Positions 2,288-21,053 of a stretch of 55,413 bases of DNA are shown piece after piece. Position 1 is the stretch's first letter; each line of letters starts with the position of its first letter. The notes beneath the pieces are model-generated. The model searched no databases. It was given only the letters and a program-made list of their open reading frames with translations, and was not told the DNA's origin. The position numbers and the translations under genes are program-made. This DNA comes from Candidatus Levybacteria bacterium GW2011_GWA1_37_16 (GTDB lineage Bacteria; Patescibacteriota; Microgenomatia; Levybacterales; UBA12049): NCBI GenBank assembly GCA_943357985.1, contig CALRGR010000006.1:1-55413 (forward strand), in the 5' to 3' direction.

Positions 2288-3316
2288 ATGAGTAAAAAAT
2301 CTTTCGGACTTGATATTGGGACAAAGACCATTAAGATGGTTTCCTTGTCGCCTAGTAAAGACGGGTTTATTCTTGACGCTTCAATAATTACCCCAATGCC
2401 TGAAAAGGGGATGTTGTCTGAGTCTCCTCTTGATGAAGAAGAAATGGCTACTGCTATAAAAAAAGCCTTAAATGACAGTGGAATCGAGAGTAAATTTGTA
2501 AACATTGCATTACCGGAAACTCAAATATATACAAAGGTCATTGAAATGCCTGCGCTTTCAGATAAAGAGCTGTCGTCTGCTATATATTGGGAGGCAGAGC
2601 AGTATATCCCTATTCCTCTTTCTAGCATAACTTTTGTCTGGAGTATTTTAAAAAGGCCTCAAAAGTTCACGGCCGGAGACAAGATGGAAGTTTTAATGGT
2701 GGGAGCCCCAACTACGCTAGTTAATAAGTATAAGAAGATTATAAGCATGGCGGGTTTAACTGTAGTTTCTATGGAAACACAAATACTTTCTGCAATTAGA
2801 GCTTTGGTTGGTTCTCAATTTCCCCCGTCTCTTCTGGTTGACATAGGTGAAGTAAGTACATGTCTGGCTATAGTTAAAGATGGCATAATGATTTTTACTT
2901 ATTCAACTCCTACTGGCGGAGGTGCAATTAGCAGAGCAATTGCTTCAAGCTTTGGATTTTCAGCAGCCGAAGCTGAACAGTACAAAAAAACCTATGGATT
3001 TGCTGACCGTGTTTTTGGAGGGAAAATAGGTCTTGCAGCGCATCCTATTCTTATGACAATTCTAACAGAAGTAAAAAAGGCGCTCTCTTTTTATGACCAA
3101 AAATACAAAGACGAGCCAATTAAGCAAATTCTTTTATCCGGAGGAACTGCAAAGCTTCCGGGCATTGATGCTTTTTTTGCAAATAATTCGGGCATTGAAA
3201 CTGTTATTGCCACTCCATGGAAGCGCTTGGCAAGTCAGCAAATTCCAAAACAGATTTTAGACAACGGTGCAGAGTACACAATTGCTGCAGGTCTTGCCAT
3301 GAGGGATTATGAATAA
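2288..3316 (+). CDS. pilM: type IV pilus assembly protein PilM
   Basis: GLDIG, WEAEQYIP, LVDIG and LSGGTAKL actin-like motifs. Confidence 0.93.
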   Translation: MSKKSFGLDIGTKTIKMVSLSPSKDGFILDASIITPMPEKGMLSESPLDEEEMATAIKKALNDSGIESKFVNIALPETQIYTKVIEMPALSDKELSSAIYWEAEQYIPIPLSSITFVWSILKRPQKFTAGDKMEVLMVGAPTTLVNKYKKIISMAGLTVVSMETQILSAIRALVGSQFPPSLLVDIGEVSTCLAIVKDGIMIFTYSTPTGGGAISRAIASSFGFSAAEAEQYKKTYGFADRVFGGKIGLAAHPILMTILTEVKKALSFYDQKYKDEPIKQILLSGGTAKLPGIDAFFANNSGIETVIATPWKRLASQQIPKQILDNGAEYTIAAGLAMRDYE

Positions 3317-3845
3317 CGACATAAATCTTATTTCTGGAGATTTGGGTGTCTCACAACGGGCAACATGGAAACTTGATAGAGTCAAGCTTATTGCTAAGGT
3401 TACTGTACTTGGAGTAGGTCTTCTTTCAATACTACTCTTTCTTCTTAGTCGTGTATTTTCTCCTCAATCAATTATAAAACAGCAGAACGAAGTAATTGCG
3501 GGTATTGCCATTCTTGCCGATAAACAAGCAAAATTAATAGTTTTAAATCAGCGGGTAAATGATATTTCAACGATATTTAAAAAAAGAAAAAACTATGATC
3601 TTGTTTTAAGCGCCATTATTGCGGACTTCCCTGCCAATATTTCCATAACATCTCTTTCTGTAGACAAGTCAAAGATATCTGCAATAGTAAGCTCATCCTC
3701 TCTTATTTCTTTGAATGATTTTATAGATTCACTTAAGGGGATGGTTGAAAAGAAGCAATTTCTAAAAAATGTAACTATAAATAACCTTAATTTGAACGGT
3801 AAAACTTCAGGGTATATATTAACTTTAGATATGGATTTACTATGA
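3309..3845 (+). CDS. pilN: PilN-like pilus assembly protein
   Basis: INL motif, one TM helix, coiled coil; follows pilM. Confidence 0.75.
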   Translation: MNNDINLISGDLGVSQRATWKLDRVKLIAKVTVLGVGLLSILLFLLSRVFSPQSIIKQQNEVIAGIAILADKQAKLIVLNQRVNDISTIFKKRKNYDLVLSAIIADFPANISITSLSVDKSKISAIVSSSSLISLNDFIDSLKGMVEKKQFLKNVTINNLNLNGKTSGYILTLDMDLL

Positions 3846-4573: not shown

Positions 4574-5243
4574 GAAGATCCGGTCTTAATTTGATTGTAA
4601 CTTTTTTTGACTCCTCTTTTTTCCATTGTTTGATTTTTTCATGGTTGCCCGAAATAAGTGTTTTAGGAACGGAAAGGTTATTGTAAATTCCGGGTCTGGT
4701 ATATTGAGGGTATTCAAGCGTTCCTTCAGAAAATGATTCGTCATCTGTTACGCCTTCTGGTAATACTCCTGTTATAAGTCTTACAACGGCATCTGTTACA
4801 AGCATGGCAGGGATTTCTCCTCCTGTTGTTATGAAATCTCCTACGGAAATTTCTTCATCAATAAAATTTTGCGTTCTGGCGTCGATTCCTTCGTAATGTC
4901 CGCAAACAAGTATTAAATGTGAAAGTTTTGAAAATTCTTCCGCTTTTTTTTGTTCAAAAGATTTTCCCTGTGGACCAAGAAAGACAACTCTTTGCTCTTT
5001 CCTGCTAAGGTTTTTGTCTAAGGAATGATTAATTGCTTCTGCCAGCACATCAACCCTAATAACCATTCCTTTTCCGCCTCCATAGGCTTTGTCGTCAACA
5101 GTTTTATGTTTTCCCAGGCCAAAGTCTCTAATGTCTATAGAATTAATTTCTACCAGTTTTTTGTCCCTTGCTCTTTTTACTATCGAATAGTCAAAGGGGC
5201 CTGTAAACATTTGGGGAAATAAAGTGAGAATGGATATTTTCAC
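4557..5243 (-). CDS. trmD: tRNA (guanine37-N1)-methyltransferase
   Basis: ILTLFP, VDDKAYGGG, CGHYEGID, LEYPQYTRP, SGNH. Confidence 0.97.
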   Translation of the reverse strand: MKISILTLFPQMFTGPFDYSIVKRARDKKLVEINSIDIRDFGLGKHKTVDDKAYGGGKGMVIRVDVLAEAINHSLDKNLSRKEQRVVFLGPQGKSFEQKKAEEFSKLSHLILVCGHYEGIDARTQNFIDEEISVGDFITTGGEIPAMLVTDAVVRLITGVLPEGVTDDESFSEGTLEYPQYTRPGIYNNLSVPKTLISGNHEKIKQWKKEESKKVTIKLRPDLLKKAH

Positions 5244-17605: not shown

Positions 17606-18821
17606 TTTCTTTTTTTAGGACACTTTGGAACTTAGAAAGTTCCATTGTTTTTGAGTCGCCTTTCTTGTCTCTTATAGACATTAAATTACCTCCTGCGACT
17701 TCTTTCTCCCCTATTATACCTAAATAAGGCACTTTTTGTAAAGTGGCTGTCCTAATTTTGGCTTGAAGTGTTTCTGACCTGCTATTTACCTCTACTTTAA
17801 TGCCGGCACCGGCAAGCTCAGAGGCCAGTTTTTCGGCGTGCTCCTTTTGGTTATCTGTAATCGGCAAAATTGTAACTTGAACAGGGGCAAGCCATAATGG
17901 GAAAGCTCCCTGATAATGTTCTGTCAAAATTCCAATAAATCTTTCTAAGCTTCCTGTAATTGCTCTGTGGATTATAACTGGTCTTTTCCCTTTTCCGTCT
18001 TCTGCTATGTATTTAAGACCCATCTTTTCCGGGATTTGAAAATCAAGCTGTATTGTTGCTAATTGCCAATCTCTTTTTTGCGAGTCTTTAATGTGAATGT
18101 CAATTTTAGGTCCATAAAAGGCTCCATCTTTTTCTTTTACGCCATACTCGACTTTTGAATTATTCAGAGCAGTTTTAAGTGCTTCCTCTGCCTGCCCCCA
18201 AAGCTTTTCATCCCCCATTGCTTTATCTGGCTTGGTTGATAGAAAAAATTCAGGCTTGAAATCAAATATTTTATAAAACTCAACAACCAATTTCAAAAGA
18301 TTTTGTATTTCTTCTTGAATTTGGTCTGGTCTTACGTAAATATGTGCATCGTCAATAGTAAATTGTCTTACTCTAAAAAGTCCGCCCAAAACTCCGGATA
18401 ATTCATTCCTGTGTAAAGTTCCAAAATCGCTGTATCTTATTGGTAAGTCATGATAGCTTCTTATTGTGTTTGAAAATATAAGAGCGGATTCGGGACAATT
18501 CATTGGTTTTAGAGAATAGCTTTCGCTTTCTACATCCAGGCTAAACATATTCTCTTTGTAGTGATCCCAGTGTCCTGATGTTTTAAATAGCTGACTCTTG
18601 GTCATAACAGGCGTTGAGATTTCTGTATAGCCTTCTTTGGCAAGAAGTTCTCTTATGAAATTCTGAAGTGTTAGATAAATTTTCCAGCCTTTTGGGTGCC
18701 AGAAAACTGCACCTGGGGCAACTTCATGGAAAGAAAACAAGTCTAATTCTTGGCCGATTTGGCGGTGGTCCCGCCTAGATGAGCTTTCGGCGAGGTTGGC
18801 TTTTAAATTTGAATTATCCAT
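17589..18821 (-). CDS. thrS: threonine--tRNA ligase without N-terminal editing domains
   Basis: DHRQIG, SGHW, LKPMNCP, GAFYGPKID, TIQLDF, IHRAITGSLERF. Confidence 0.96.
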   Translation of the reverse strand: MDNSNLKANLAESSSRRDHRQIGQELDLFSFHEVAPGAVFWHPKGWKIYLTLQNFIRELLAKEGYTEISTPVMTKSQLFKTSGHWDHYKENMFSLDVESESYSLKPMNCPESALIFSNTIRSYHDLPIRYSDFGTLHRNELSGVLGGLFRVRQFTIDDAHIYVRPDQIQEEIQNLLKLVVEFYKIFDFKPEFFLSTKPDKAMGDEKLWGQAEEALKTALNNSKVEYGVKEKDGAFYGPKIDIHIKDSQKRDWQLATIQLDFQIPEKMGLKYIAEDGKGKRPVIIHRAITGSLERFIGILTEHYQGAFPLWLAPVQVTILPITDNQKEHAEKLASELAGAGIKVEVNSRSETLQAKIRTATLQKVPYLGIIGEKEVAGGNLMSIRDKKGDSKTMELSKFQSVLKKEIEQKF

Positions 18822-18824
18822 GAG

Positions 18825-19043
18825 TTATTTTAACAATTGGGAGTTACTTTGTACATAGAGGGTTATTTTTGCCACGAATGTTCCTATAACCGGAATTAAG
18901 TCAACTTTACTAAAAAGCATACTAATTATAGCAACAACAATTGTACTGCCTATAAAAACCCCAAGCGCCCACATAATTCCGCCAATAAAATTATTTAGAG
19001 CCATTTGTTTTCTGTTTCTTTCTACTTTCTCGTGTGGTTGCAT
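18825..19043 (-). CDS. small membrane protein (DUF5665-like)
   Basis: NFIGGIMWALGVFIG...IPVIGTF; ATG 19043 lies 6 nt after TATACT. Confidence 0.65.
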   Translation of the reverse strand: MQPHEKVERNRKQMALNNFIGGIMWALGVFIGSTIVVAIISMLFSKVDLIPVIGTFVAKITLYVQSNSQLLK

Positions 19044-19071
19044 GAAACTAGTATAGCTTATTTTTAAACGT

Positions 19072-19170
19072 GAAAAAAGCCCTAGAGATATTGATAATGA
19101 ATGCGCGCGTGCGCGGTGATGACGCAATGTCATCTAAATCCATTATCAAGGAATCTTTCGGGCTTTTTTC
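19072..19170. ncRNA. branched stem-loop (candidate structured RNA or bidirectional terminator)
   Basis: GAAAAAAGCCC/GGGCTTTTTTC and TTGATAATG/CATTATCAA stems, with inner GCGC/GCGC and GATGAC/GTCATC hairpins. Confidence 0.5.
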
Positions 19171-19260
19171 TTGCACGAACATTTTGTTTGCGGAATCGGC
19201 AGAGGTAAACGCTCGCAGGCGTTATTCATGGAATTCTCCATGCTGCTACCACTAAGGCTA

Positions 19261-19587
19261 TCATTCGAGTCCGATCACCGGAGCTTGCCGTTGAGACCTC
19301 TTCTTTTGGTGATGGCGTCGTAGATAAGCGATAATGCCGATGATGGCTACCAATGTGGTAATGACCACATGGATTATCGCTTGCGTGATCAATAGTGGGT
19401 GCTCGATCGAGCTCCACCTGTTCATGGCAATCTTCACGACTGCGATCGTGATAAAGATCAGCAGGCATTCTGCAACGAGTGCAAACTTTTGCATTCGCCC
19501 ATTGGCGCCGTCTGATCCCACTAACTGGTACATGAACGTCGTAATGACGATCATACTAGCGGACCAATATGCCCAAAATAGTAACAC
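19261..19587 (-). CDS. hypothetical 3-TM membrane protein
   Basis: Three hydrophobic segments and a basic tail; AAAGGAG SD before the GTG; visibly GC-richer than the flanks. Confidence 0.65.
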   Translation of the reverse strand: MLLFWAYWSASMIVITTFMYQLVGSDGANGRMQKFALVAECLLIFITIAVVKIAMNRWSSIEHPLLITQAIIHVVITTLVAIIGIIAYLRRHHQKKRSQRQAPVIGLE

Positions 19588-19626
19588 GGAAGTCTCCTTT
19601 CGGGAGATTAACTTAAAATTTACTCA

Positions 19627-19672
19627 CAGTTACCTTACTAAGTACCAAAAAAGATACCTACTAAGGTAACTG
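19627..19672. promoter_or_regulatory. palindromic operator, HxlR-like
   Basis: CAGTTACCTTA...TAAGGTAACTG; shares TACCTTACT and TACCTACTA with 33234-33258. Confidence 0.5.
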
Positions 19673-19782
19673 TCAATTTCCGCAAACAAATTGTTAATGT
19701 GCAAGAAAATAAAAAACTTGCCTAAAGAGACAAAAGATAGGCAGCAAAAAATTGCCAACGCTTATCTCTGAAAGAAGCCTGA

Positions 19783-19820
19783 ATATTAGCAGGTTTGGGG
19801 TGTAAGTCAAACTATAGGTT
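19783..19820 (-). promoter_or_regulatory. sigma70 promoter with an AACCTATAGTT box at the -35
   Basis: TTGACT-16 nt-(TG.)TAATAT. Confidence 0.5.
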
Positions 19821-19842
19821 TTTTAAATCGAGGCTGAAAGTG

Positions 19843-19916
19843 TGGGCCCAAGAGGATTCGAACCTCTGACCTTTGCAATGTCAATGCAACGCTCTAACCA
19901 ACTGAGCTATGAGCCC
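19843..19916 (-). tRNA. tRNA-Val(GAC)
   Basis: Cloverleaf; anticodon arm TTGCA-TTGACAT-TGCAA. Confidence 0.95.
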
Positions 19917-19939
19917 GTTTAACCATTTTACCATAACCA

Positions 19940-20428
19940 CTAGAATCTCTTGAATGGCAATGCCTGTAGGCTCTTGTAAGCCGGTAGGAGATAGGGTTGT
20001 TTGTAGTCCGGTATTCTTCTAAATGATGTTTGCGCTTGTGCATTTTCTCTGTCAAGCATCTCAACTAAATCCCCTACTGAATGATTGTCCGGAAAAGCGT
20101 CTAAAAGTTGACCGGGTAAATAAACAGAGCTTGGTATTTCTCTAATCCCCAAAAGTGGAGCGTATCTGGATCTATGGTGCCCGTCTATTATTAGTAGTTG
20201 AGTTGCGTTTCCTCTAAGCAATGCGCATGCAATAATAGGGTTTTTTGTAAGAAATTGTGTGTCAGCTTCCATTTCCTTTAATACGGATTTTCTCTTGGCT
20301 TTTGTAAACTCGTTTTCACTTTGCCTGCCAAACAGATAAGAAACAGGGATAATCATCCTTTGTCCCGAAATTAATATCTCGCGAAGTTTTAGTTCATCCG
20401 GATAACGTATTCTGGATTCTATAGACAT
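19940..20428 (-). CDS. ParB/Srx-like N-terminal domain protein
   Basis: PII...LIIDGHHR motif. Confidence 0.6.
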   Translation of the reverse strand: MSIESRIRYPDELKLREILISGQRMIIPVSYLFGRQSENEFTKAKRKSVLKEMEADTQFLTKNPIIACALLRGNATQLLIIDGHHRSRYAPLLGIREIPSSVYLPGQLLDAFPDNHSVGDLVEMLDRENAQAQTSFRRIPDYKQPYLLPAYKSLQALPFKRF

Positions 20429-20432
20429 AGAA

Positions 20433-21053
20433 TTATCCTGTTTGGGTGGCTACTGTGCGTTCATTTGAAAGACCAAATGATGTCCCATGTTTTTTAAATT
20501 GTGTCCAGTATTTCTTGTCTTTCTTGCTATGCATTGCAGACATCCAGCCAACCGATTCTTCAATTCTTATCCTTGCGGTCTTAACAAGAGAGTACATCCA
20601 TTCAAGTAAATTCTGGTGATATTTACCTGGTTTTACAATCTGTGTTTCCACTATAACGTCCTTAAATTGTGTCGCAAGCTCTTGGGAAGAGTCAGTCAAG
20701 CGTTTTATTTCAACAAGGATTTCCTCTACTCTTACTCTGATTTCATGGTCTTCTGAGGAAGATGCTTTGTCGGCATGAATTATTTCTCTTCTATAATCTA
20801 TTCCAGGCTCTATTGCAGCATCTTTTATTTTTTTAAGATCCAAGGCTTCTCCTTCATGTAATTCCCCGCCTCCTTTGTGTGGCTGCCTTTTTTGAGGTTC
20901 TATTCCAAACATTTGGCCAAAGAAGTCGGAAGCTCCAGCTCCTGCTAAATCTTTTACTAAAGTAGTACCTGTCCCCTGGATAATATTTCCTAAAGATTCC
21001 AGTGGATTTTGATTAATAAAATTTCTTTGTTGTTTTTTGTCTTGTTTGCTCAT
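20433..21053 (-). CDS. conserved hypothetical protein (DUF5660-like)
   Basis: NPLESL, PGKYH, YWTQFKKHGTSFGLSNER motifs; start at MSKQDKK. Confidence 0.6.
   Translation of the reverse strand: MSKQDKKQQRNFINQNPLESLGNIIQGTGTTLVKDLAGAGASDFFGQMFGIEPQKRQPHKGGGELHEGEALDLKKIKDAAIEPGIDYRREIIHADKASSSEDHEIRVRVEEILVEIKRLTDSSQELATQFKDVIVETQIVKPGKYHQNLLEWMYSLVKTARIRIEESVGWMSAMHSKKDKKYWTQFKKHGTSFGLSNERTVATQTG

Follow-up and report, generated by a model that had tools for sequence, protein, structure and literature searches.

Organization of the locus

The window analysed here is a stretch of 55,413 nucleotides (nt) from Candidatus Levybacteria bacterium GW2011_GWA1_37_16 (GenBank assembly GCA_943357985.1, contig CALRGR010000006.1), i.e. 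contig C6 of the genome designated G000 below (681 kb, 17 contigs, 37% GC). At positions 19044-19841, between a tRNA-Val(GAC) gene and the gene of a DUF5665 membrane protein, lies a small unit in which the two arms of an inverted repeat enclose a gene for a membrane protein of 108 amino acids (aa). We consider it somewhat probable, at roughly 55%, that this unit is one copy of a family of small, self-contained and horizontally acquired Levybacteria cassettes with complementary ends. The features of the locus, including the elements around the open reading frame (ORF) and its ribosome-binding site (RBS), are as follows:

18825-19043, minus strand: DUF5665 membrane-protein gene (Pfam PF18910, 45.6 bits), the host gene downstream of the cassette
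19072-19170, minus strand: Y-shaped element with an outer stem formed by an A-run and a T-run, an inner stem and two hairpins, its T-run ending just before the promoter of the next gene (folds; covariance model R1)
19166-19195, minus strand: left arm of the inverted repeat, the 3' pairing arm; this arm and a GTGCAAG core make up P0, a small conserved hairpin before the Y element (conserved in genomes G002, G050, G029 and G049)
19201-19253, minus strand: post-ORF element shaped like a three-way junction, with two variable hairpins and conserved ends that are complementary (alignment, folds)
19261-19587, minus strand: cargo gene, a near-orphan ORF with a GTG start for a three-helix membrane protein of 108 aa
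19593-19609, minus strand: RBS hairpin, GGAGA paired with TCTCC, 7 nt before the GTG start (fold)
19626-19673, minus strand: leader palindrome or hairpin of 48 nt with 19-nt arms and a 10-nt loop (inverted pair and fold); a long hairpin at this place is a feature of the family
19678-19709, minus strand: right arm, the 5' end module, which holds a conserved 16-mer (19687-19702) and then the 5' pairing arm (alignment; census of the 16-mer)
19710-19790, minus strand: upstream spacer with a weak hairpin and a T-run abutting the right arm, in the place of the insulator hairpins that precede the 16-mer elsewhere
19842-19916, minus strand: tRNA-Val(GAC), its 3' end toward the cassette (ARAGORN; Rfam tRNA, 74.7 bits)

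An earlier reading of the letters alone (the sequence-only reading) had described inverted repeats of about 30 bp (11 identical nt, a short indel, then 17 of 18) around 482 bp, downstream of tRNA-Val, enclosing a GC-richer gene with three transmembrane segments, a TCTCC/GGAGA hairpin over its Shine-Dalgarno sequence and a palindrome upstream. Realignment, ARAGORN and Rfam, the ORF, GC windows and folds confirm all of these. The outer arm halves (19166-19176 and 19699-19709) match at 11 of 11 positions in inverted orientation, and the inner halves (19178-19195 and 19678-19695), which are separated by 482 nt, match at 17 of 18. As a single alignment (19166-19195 and 19678-19709), 28 of 30 positions agree with one 2-nt indel.

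The score of this repeat, 21, is met by none of 200 shuffles of the downstream 1.5 kb (shuffle maximum, 12.5). Among all inverted pairs in the 681-kb genome with arms at most 1.5 kb apart it ranks second or third, and one of five first-order Markov genomes yields a pair scoring 21.5. The window repeat alone is only moderately significant; it is the family evidence that makes it non-random. Exact matches of its 13-nt core occur only at the two arms, i.e. the repeat is unique in the genome. It is the 5' arm/3' arm pair of one cassette copy and the longest arm pair among the cassettes examined; this unusual length arises because it also spans the 16-mer and the T-run/A-run of both flanking terminators, which explains the symmetry that the sequence-only reading had seen. 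As a separate observation, another top-three pair of the genome is a perfect 20-nt inverted repeat around a YebC-like gene on contig C4 (53001-53920; locus L060, 1001-1920), unrelated in sequence to the cassette.

A 16-mer shared by cassettes of the order

With one mismatch allowed, the 16-mer is found at 74 places in 59 of the 245 genomes of the order, six of them exact, while the reversed 16-mer used as a control is found at 19 places in the 245 genomes (tallied from a table). We examined 46 sources (25 census loci, 20 further loci and the window) and scored the 41 copies with at least 800 nt downstream and no N run in the 150 nt from the 16-mer, dropping the rest. Among these, 29 are leader-like, i.e. 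have a fold of -30 kcal/mol or lower within 134 nt. Leader-like copies have the 16-mer between genes, often after a hairpin and T-run, and continue with a long hairpin, an RBS and genes. The family is characterized by this anatomy, by complementary arms that differ between cassettes, by its absence from empty sites and by its fixed orientation. N runs cover the expected 5' border of the G029 cassette (L073, about 706-803) and the sequence after the L091 cassette.

Base composition changes at these units: in 17 cassettes with matching arms (see below), GC content rises from 0.35-0.49 upstream to 0.47-0.64 inside. The cargo is mostly without known relatives. Of 15 ORFs chosen from 23 listed ORFs of ten loci, 13 have no Pfam family, one belongs to SPFH/Band 7 and one is cytidylyltransferase-like, and no cargo proteins are alike between G000, G002 and G050. 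The ends, in turn, recur with different cargo: G049 (family f2) agrees with the window (G000, family f1) in its arm sequence and in the P0 hairpin ahead of a Y-like terminator, and its genes are unrelated. In the orthologous pair L089/L108, the ends are 93-98% identical and the interior 66%; judged from such alignments, cassette ends appear to be under stronger constraint than interiors.

Two other interpretations of the 16-mer and its surroundings were rejected. As a sigma-70 -35/-10 box or a sigma-54 promoter, its spacing and flanks do not fit. An enrichment of GCAC-N9-TTGC in the genome (32 places versus 3 for the control) reflects coding periodicity, most of these places being inside ORFs and without the 16-mer.

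Viral contigs contain no relative of the 108-aa protein family (alignment A3) or of a 153-aa ORF of G002. They have T followed by the 16-mer at 15 loci, about the background level, and an arm-like inverted match only in L123 and L124. In these two IMG/VR loci, the inverted match of the bases adjoining the 16-mer lies 0.7-0.9 kb downstream and is reached by 0 and 1 of 200 shuffles, respectively; they may be cassettes on phage-like DNA or on misfiled DNA of the candidate phyla radiation (CPR). It was also observed that seven of the 20 further 16-mer loci (L102, L104, L105 and L114-L117) end at a contig break no more than 1.1 kb downstream, and a gene array in G002 (see below) is broken as well. 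Assemblies tend to break inside cassettes.

Complementarity of the cassette ends

For each scored copy, the 25 nt from position 10 of the 16-mer onward were reverse-complemented, and the resulting arm probe was searched for downstream. This probe scores at least 10 in 14 of 29 leader-like copies and in 1 of 12 other copies. The corresponding counts for control probes are 0/29 and 2/12 (reversed), 1/29 and 1/12 (complement only), and 3/29 and 3/12 (direct). In 14 of 29 leader-like copies, versus none of the 12 others, a match scoring at least 9 has a hairpin of -18 kcal/mol or lower no more than 70 nt further downstream.

Altogether, 17 cassettes are positive at a score of at least 9, including the 14 that reach 10. 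Their matches begin at an offset of 0-5 nt in the probe, i.e. at the 16-mer's 3' edge, and the 3' arm match is located where GC content returns to that of the host. The conserved 16-mer stands at only one end in most copies, and the repeated part is the variable part. As read from the arm listing, the 17 positive cassettes have about 14 different arm sequences between them. Since the arms differ between cassettes and yet are complementary within each, it is the pairing of the two ends that appears to be conserved, not the arm sequence.

The 3' module

The Y element of the window folds at -44.1 kcal/mol (z = -7.1). Flanked by an A-run and, on the opposite side, a T-run, it faces both ways and could terminate transcription in both directions; the modelled structure is thus probably a two-way terminator or insulator. 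Y copies of five genomes fold independently to one plan (z = -4.1 to -7.4, with none of 200 shuffles as stable in each case), and their inner stems differ in sequence. The structure at the right flank (19700-19790) is not significant (z = -1.6; 10 of 200 shuffles fold as well). The sequence-only reading had placed a structured, inward-oriented segment ending in a T-tract outside each repeat arm; the left one stands, although it is bidirectional, and the right one is weak.

The 3' module, i.e. the left arm and Y element, is conserved in six genomes. Covariance model R1, which comprises both parts, found it in three of 151 sampled genomes of the order (G000, G050 and G079), the G079 copy being a solo module between divergent genes. 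R1 missed a divergent copy in G029 (9.4 bits), a congener of G050, which was found by reading the homologous site; the copy of G049 was judged by eye and not folded. G000 and G002 share the Y element, left arm, post-ORF element and RBS hairpin, and their 3' modules are 81% identical versus 67% for neighbouring core genes.

A scan of window positions 18000-21000 on both strands with Rfam 15 (E ≤ 1) returned only the tRNA and an overlapping sub-threshold match, with none for the Y element, the leader hairpin or the 16-mer region. The exact Y pattern has no match in viral contigs, and in species-genome contigs it matches only three records that were already known. In metagenome contigs it matches four loci, of which two are identical to known ones and two are chance matches inside high-GC genes.

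Insertion sites and empty sites

In G050 and G029, the 3' module closes GC-rich orphan cassettes just upstream of dnaG. The G050 cassette, including its Y element, is absent at the matching sites of G046 (100 nt between the flanks) and G025 (138 nt), so that the module belongs to the inserted DNA. For the G049 locus there is no clean empty site in 12 congeners, a 3-kb interval being variable in all of them. Cassettes occupy unrelated loci (before DUF5665, before dnaG and elsewhere), and only three of the 18 examined adjoin a tRNA gene; tRNA adjacency is no rule of the family.

At the window locus, gene comparison indicates that tRNA-Val(GAC), DUF5665 and thrS form an old gene order. DUF5665 lies on the same strand as tRNA-Val, at most 1.5 kb downstream of it, in 12 of 16 loci of relatives, and four loci lack DUF5665 in that range. 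The gap between the two genes is 36-57 nt in three relatives (G004, G006 and G030) and holds other genes in nine (619-2564 nt), namely a gene of about 190 aa with an HD-like motif in five genomes and others in G003, G001, G036 and G025. In G002 the slot holds at least 2.3 kb with six co-oriented, GC-rich (0.505 versus 0.393) orphan ORFs and then reaches the contig end. The slot between tRNA-Val and DUF5665 is therefore variable. A comparison of the locus in relatives for different cargo had been suggested by the sequence-only reading, which would have given up its proposal on finding a single orientation, a unique repeat and an identical context in relatives; the repeat is unique and its orientation single (see below), but the context differs, with the cassette absent or the cargo different.

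An alignment with five orthologues places the likely start of DUF5665 at the ATG at 19043, not at 19133. A TATACT box stands about 7 nt before this start (within 19044-19071) and is conserved in G003 and G030; its proximity to the start suggests a leaderless or near-leaderless DUF5665 mRNA.

Some further observations concern the surroundings of such sites. In L027 of G001, a genome of the same genus, an 80-aa GIY-YIG-like ORF separates tRNA-Val(GAC) from an incomplete duplicate of the tRNA's 3' part further on (3258-3623), an arrangement that looks like an insertion of the homing-endonuclease type at a tRNA gene. In L135 of G049, short dispersed repeats lie directly outside the cassette on both sides (2904-2951 and 4616-4693, minus strand); they recur on other contigs of G049, G050 and G025, and ARAGORN finds no tRNA there. 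In G059 the orthologous cassette (L110, compared with L090 of G064) is separated from the shared downstream flank by some 1.1 kb of additional DNA, which may be a second unit.

The enclosed gene and its leader

GC content is 0.47-0.51 inside the arms versus 0.32-0.40 in most flanking 150-nt windows, and 0.486 for the 108-aa ORF versus 0.369 for the window as a whole. A segment with GC content up to 0.62 was also noted elsewhere in G000 (contig C2, 75901-79100). The 108-aa protein has no Pfam family above the cut-off and no relative in a word-based search of 5.8 billion proteins. An exhaustive search of 1.84 billion representatives returned one cluster, of 114 aa, which matches over the full length (36% identity, E = 8e-13) and sits on contigs of at most 2977 bp. 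This single full-length homologous cluster, together with the lack of a Pfam family, points to a real but nearly orphan gene. In the ESM Atlas the protein matches unnamed clusters only; DUF202 is assigned to 28% of the members of one of them (score 0.89), which serves as a lead only. A PHROGs search gave nothing better than E = 0.002. The AlphaFold2 model consists of three long helices with a mean predicted local distance difference test (pLDDT) score of 66, too weak to warrant a fold search.

Upstream of the gene, the RBS hairpin and the palindrome fold jointly at -37.2 kcal/mol (z = -7.0). The RBS hairpin is present once in G000 and twice, before ORFs, in its congener G002 (family D2). The post-ORF element has three matches in the 245 genomes (one in G000 and two in G002), and its folds, taken singly, are weak (z = -1.2 to -2.9). 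Cassettes of G050, G029 and G049 have in common an inter-ORF repeat of about 60 nt (up to 92% identical) that accompanies different genes (L031, 1053-1112; L064, 2630-2689; L073, about 140-200; L112, reverse strand, about +590 to +650 from the 16-mer). This repeat possibly corresponds to the post-ORF element found in G000 and G002.

Orientation and recombinase genes

The runs that hold the locus all consist of DNA contigs. A comparison of both orientations, as the sequence-only reading had proposed, was carried out on contigs: in three runs belonging to two studies (X1-X3), contigs run without a joint from one arm through the cassette to the other in the orientation of the window, although rare variants could be hidden, and a contig of a fourth run (X4) stops at 19537 and covers the left arm and part of the cassette only. 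Further runs (X5-X21) contain only minor parts of the window. Between species, orientation relative to the flanks is the same in 4/4 pairs of orthologous cassettes. No second copy of the cassette and no excised form was found in G000. The repeat listing contains no direct repeats flanking the arms, target-site duplications not having been specifically searched for, and the tRNA-Val end has no direct repeat from 18800 to 20000.

On the window's contig there is no match to Phage_integrase, Resolvase or Y1_Tnp, DDE transposases not having been searched for. The statement of the sequence-only reading that the window has no recombinase or transposase holds for these three families. The whole genome has no Resolvase or Y1_Tnp match and, the DDE families again set aside, no integrase beyond two Xer-like tyrosine recombinases from the Phage_integrase scan, both on other contigs. 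G029 (97% complete) and G050 each have a single Xer-like PF00589 match, and so do the genomes with empty sites. No integron integrase was found in G029 or G050, and no attC cores (RYYYAAC / GTTRRRY) were seen by eye in the post-ORF elements of G000, G002, G050 and G029, no attC model having been applied.

Proposed mechanism and alternative explanations

The plan of a cassette is given here for the minus strand of the window. On the 5' side, an upstream hairpin and T-run precede the 16-mer, a short variable 5' arm, a long leader hairpin and the RBS; on the 3' side, one to six GC-rich, mostly orphan genes precede the complementary 3' arm and a strong terminal hairpin, which in one sub-family takes the form of P0 and the T-tailed Y element. 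In the mechanism that we propose, the 16-mer would be the start signal of the cassette. In the cassette transcript the two arms would form a closing helix, or panhandle, tying the 5' end to the region just before the terminator, and panhandle and RBS hairpin together could control the stability or translation of a foreign membrane-protein mRNA. We infer the transcript ends and the pairing in RNA, as well as an effect on expression and the route by which cassettes are acquired. Pairing at the RNA level is suggested by several features: both arms lie inside a unit bounded by terminator-like structures; the 5' arm stands directly after the 16-mer, the only conserved upstream signal; the 3' arm is within about 15 nt of the terminal hairpin; a fold of the full 731-nt window unit closes on the arm helix (z = -9.7); and the G050 insert extends beyond both arms. 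Granted the family, we give the panhandle about an even chance.

Several points weigh against these proposals. The cut-off of -30 kcal/mol for leader-like copies was chosen after the data had been seen, and some cassette copies are orthologous and hence not independent, so that the counts overstate independence. An arm match is lacking in 15 of the 29 leader-like copies, most of which have about 1.4 kb or less downstream (only 1.4-3 kb is available at most loci), and single matches are short (9-19 nt) and individually weak, being reached by 0 to 85 of 300 shuffles. The aligned copies show no conserved -35 box and no convincing -10 box with the 16-mer. In a strand test for the G-U pairs that are specific to RNA, the sense duplex is the more stable in only 5 of 17 cassettes, with sums of -422.7 kcal/mol (sense) versus -463.9 kcal/mol (antisense). 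Furthermore, the window repeat spans the whole 16-mer and 7 nt beyond it, which lie upstream of any transcript starting at the 16-mer, and in several cassettes a GTGC beyond the 3' arm mirrors the GCAC of the 16-mer; both features fit a site at the DNA level better.

Such a site is the core of the strongest competing explanation, which is possible but on the whole unlikely, and only marginally less so if the family is accepted. The 16-mer with its arm on the 5' side, and the arm with its GTGC on the 3' side, would be paired recombination or transposition sites of a non-autonomous element whose enzyme acts in trans, either the host's single Xer-type tyrosine recombinase or a phage or plasmid enzyme from outside these genomes; the arms, specific to each cassette, would serve as crossover or overlap regions, which need to match between partner sites. 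Besides the repeat through the 16-mer, the GCAC/GTGC mirror and the absence of a sense-strand bias, this would account for the same ends around different cargo in such distant genomes as G000 and G049, for ends far more conserved than interiors, for the unrelated loci, and for the seven of 20 further loci cut by a contig end, as expected for DNA that varies within populations. A contig of another population (X1, X3) likewise shares the Y element and the outer core and diverges at 19177, inside the left arm. On the other hand, there is no second copy in the genome, no joint in the contigs of four runs, no direct repeat reported near the arms (with the limit on target-site duplications given above), and no serine or Y1 enzyme, the only recombinases being Xer-like and found in empty-site genomes too. 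At the 3' end mostly the variable arm alone is repeated, not the 16-mer, and the G050 insert runs from about 160-200 nt upstream of the 16-mer to past the 3' arm and through the Y element; in this one case, with its imprecise boundaries, the arms are thus not the ends of the inserted segment. The non-autonomous, gene-carrying element of the sequence-only reading accordingly survives as far as shared ends with unrelated cargo and absence in relatives are concerned, and lacks a transposase, a duplication, a second copy and an excised form. The RNA panhandle and paired DNA sites are not mutually exclusive. It is even conceivable, if still less probable than DNA-level ends, that these cassettes are a new kind of vehicle without a recombinase of its own, in which the 16-nt signal and arms fold the single-stranded cassette into a panhandle whose stem is the substrate for insertion or exchange by a host enzyme, e.g. 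of the Xer type. The single strand could be imported DNA, in cells that naturally import DNA, or a transcript, and the terminators would shield the neighbouring essential genes.

The remaining explanations are much weaker. A toxin-antitoxin-like system of type I, a special case of pairing in RNA in which the mRNA of a toxic membrane protein is kept inert by 5'-3' fold-back and a sequestered RBS, is improbable. The protein is small and hydrophobic, a hairpin is predicted over its RBS, the full-length predicted fold closes on a 5'-3' helix, and several other cassettes also begin with small membrane proteins. Known type I toxins are about half the size, with a limit of about 60 aa, whereas this protein has 108 aa and three helices; no antisense RNA gene was identified, and other cassettes hold one to six genes, including soluble ones such as the SPFH/Band 7 and cytidylyltransferase-like proteins. 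Less credible still is the invertible phase-variation switch of the sequence-only reading, in which a recombinase would flip the 482-bp segment and turn the membrane-protein gene on or off. The long inverted repeat, the tyrosine recombinases elsewhere in the genome and a promoter-like TTGACT-16-TAATAT upstream of the cassette, outside the segment (19810-19783), would suit it, but the gene, its RBS and its leader all lie inside the repeat, terminator-like structures stand on both flanks, genome scans show no dedicated invertase, and a single orientation is seen in the assemblies of three runs and in all four orthologous pairs. Just as improbable is a coincidence of ordinary terminators and a chance repeat around an ordinary accessory gene, with no family at all: one of five simulated genomes does produce an equal-scoring pair and the right-hand hairpin is not significant, but chance would have to explain 74 places of the 16-mer against 19 for its control, arm complementarity in 14 of 29 copies against 0-3 of 29 for the control probes, and a 3' module conserved in six genomes.

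Significance

Bacteria of the CPR have tiny genomes with few recognisable mobile elements and many strain-specific orphan genes. The cassettes are a recurring, recognisable package for such orphan genes, with a shared 16-mer, complementary variable ends, a leader hairpin and terminators on both sides. About one in four genomes of a single order contains it, and both its loci and its cargo are unrelated between cassettes. Provided that the family proves real, it offers a searchable signature of foreign gene uptake in this group, a candidate start signal without a recognisable -35 or -10 box, and a clean test case for end pairing in RNA versus DNA. If the vehicle outlined above proved true, ultra-small genomes would have a new way of sampling foreign genes. 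No description of the family was found in Rfam or in a limited search of open-access full texts; the family is apparently undescribed.

Comparison with known systems

The tycheposons of Prochlorococcus (bioRxiv 10.1101/2020.12.28.424599) are hypervariable islands beside tRNA genes in streamlined genomes. The window resembles them in having a variable slot with foreign cargo beside a tRNA gene of a very small genome. It differs from them in having neither an integrase on its contig nor a repeat of the tRNA end, and only 3 of 18 cassettes stand beside a tRNA. Phage morons consist of a promoter, a gene and a terminator, with deviant GC content, between conserved genes. Levybacteria cassettes are likewise self-contained, insulated units of deviant GC content between conserved genes, but they occur in cellular genomes, with no phage context found, and paired ends are not a feature of morons. 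In mRNAs of the hok/sok type, the 5' and 3' ends fold back in an inhibitory structure and the RBS is sequestered. A long-range 5'-3' helix and an RBS hairpin, both predicted for the window unit, and a first gene that often encodes a small membrane protein recall this arrangement; the 108-aa protein is larger, however, the units often have several genes, and no antisense RNA was found.

Mobile insertion cassettes (MICs) are non-autonomous elements that carry passenger genes between terminal inverted repeats. They and related non-autonomous elements are among the subjects of PMC4337579. The Levybacteria units share with MICs their shortness, inverted ends, passenger genes, lack of an own transposase and the combination of the same ends with different cargo. 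They differ from MICs and miniature inverted-repeat transposable elements (MITEs) in that the inverted part varies and the 16-mer is conserved at one end only; as the arms vary between cassettes, they are unlike terminal repeats bound by a transposase. Nor was a cognate transposase (the DDE families not being searched for), a target duplication or multiple copies per genome found.

Integron cassettes and integrase-less attC clusters offer a further comparison. Both they and the Levybacteria units consist of small, co-oriented and mostly orphan genes, with structured elements that have complementary ends and with turnover of cargo at a fixed site. The Levybacteria units are without visible RYYYAAC / GTTRRRY cores (by eye) or an integron integrase, and, in contrast to integron cassettes, each appears to bring along its own start signal, leader and terminator.

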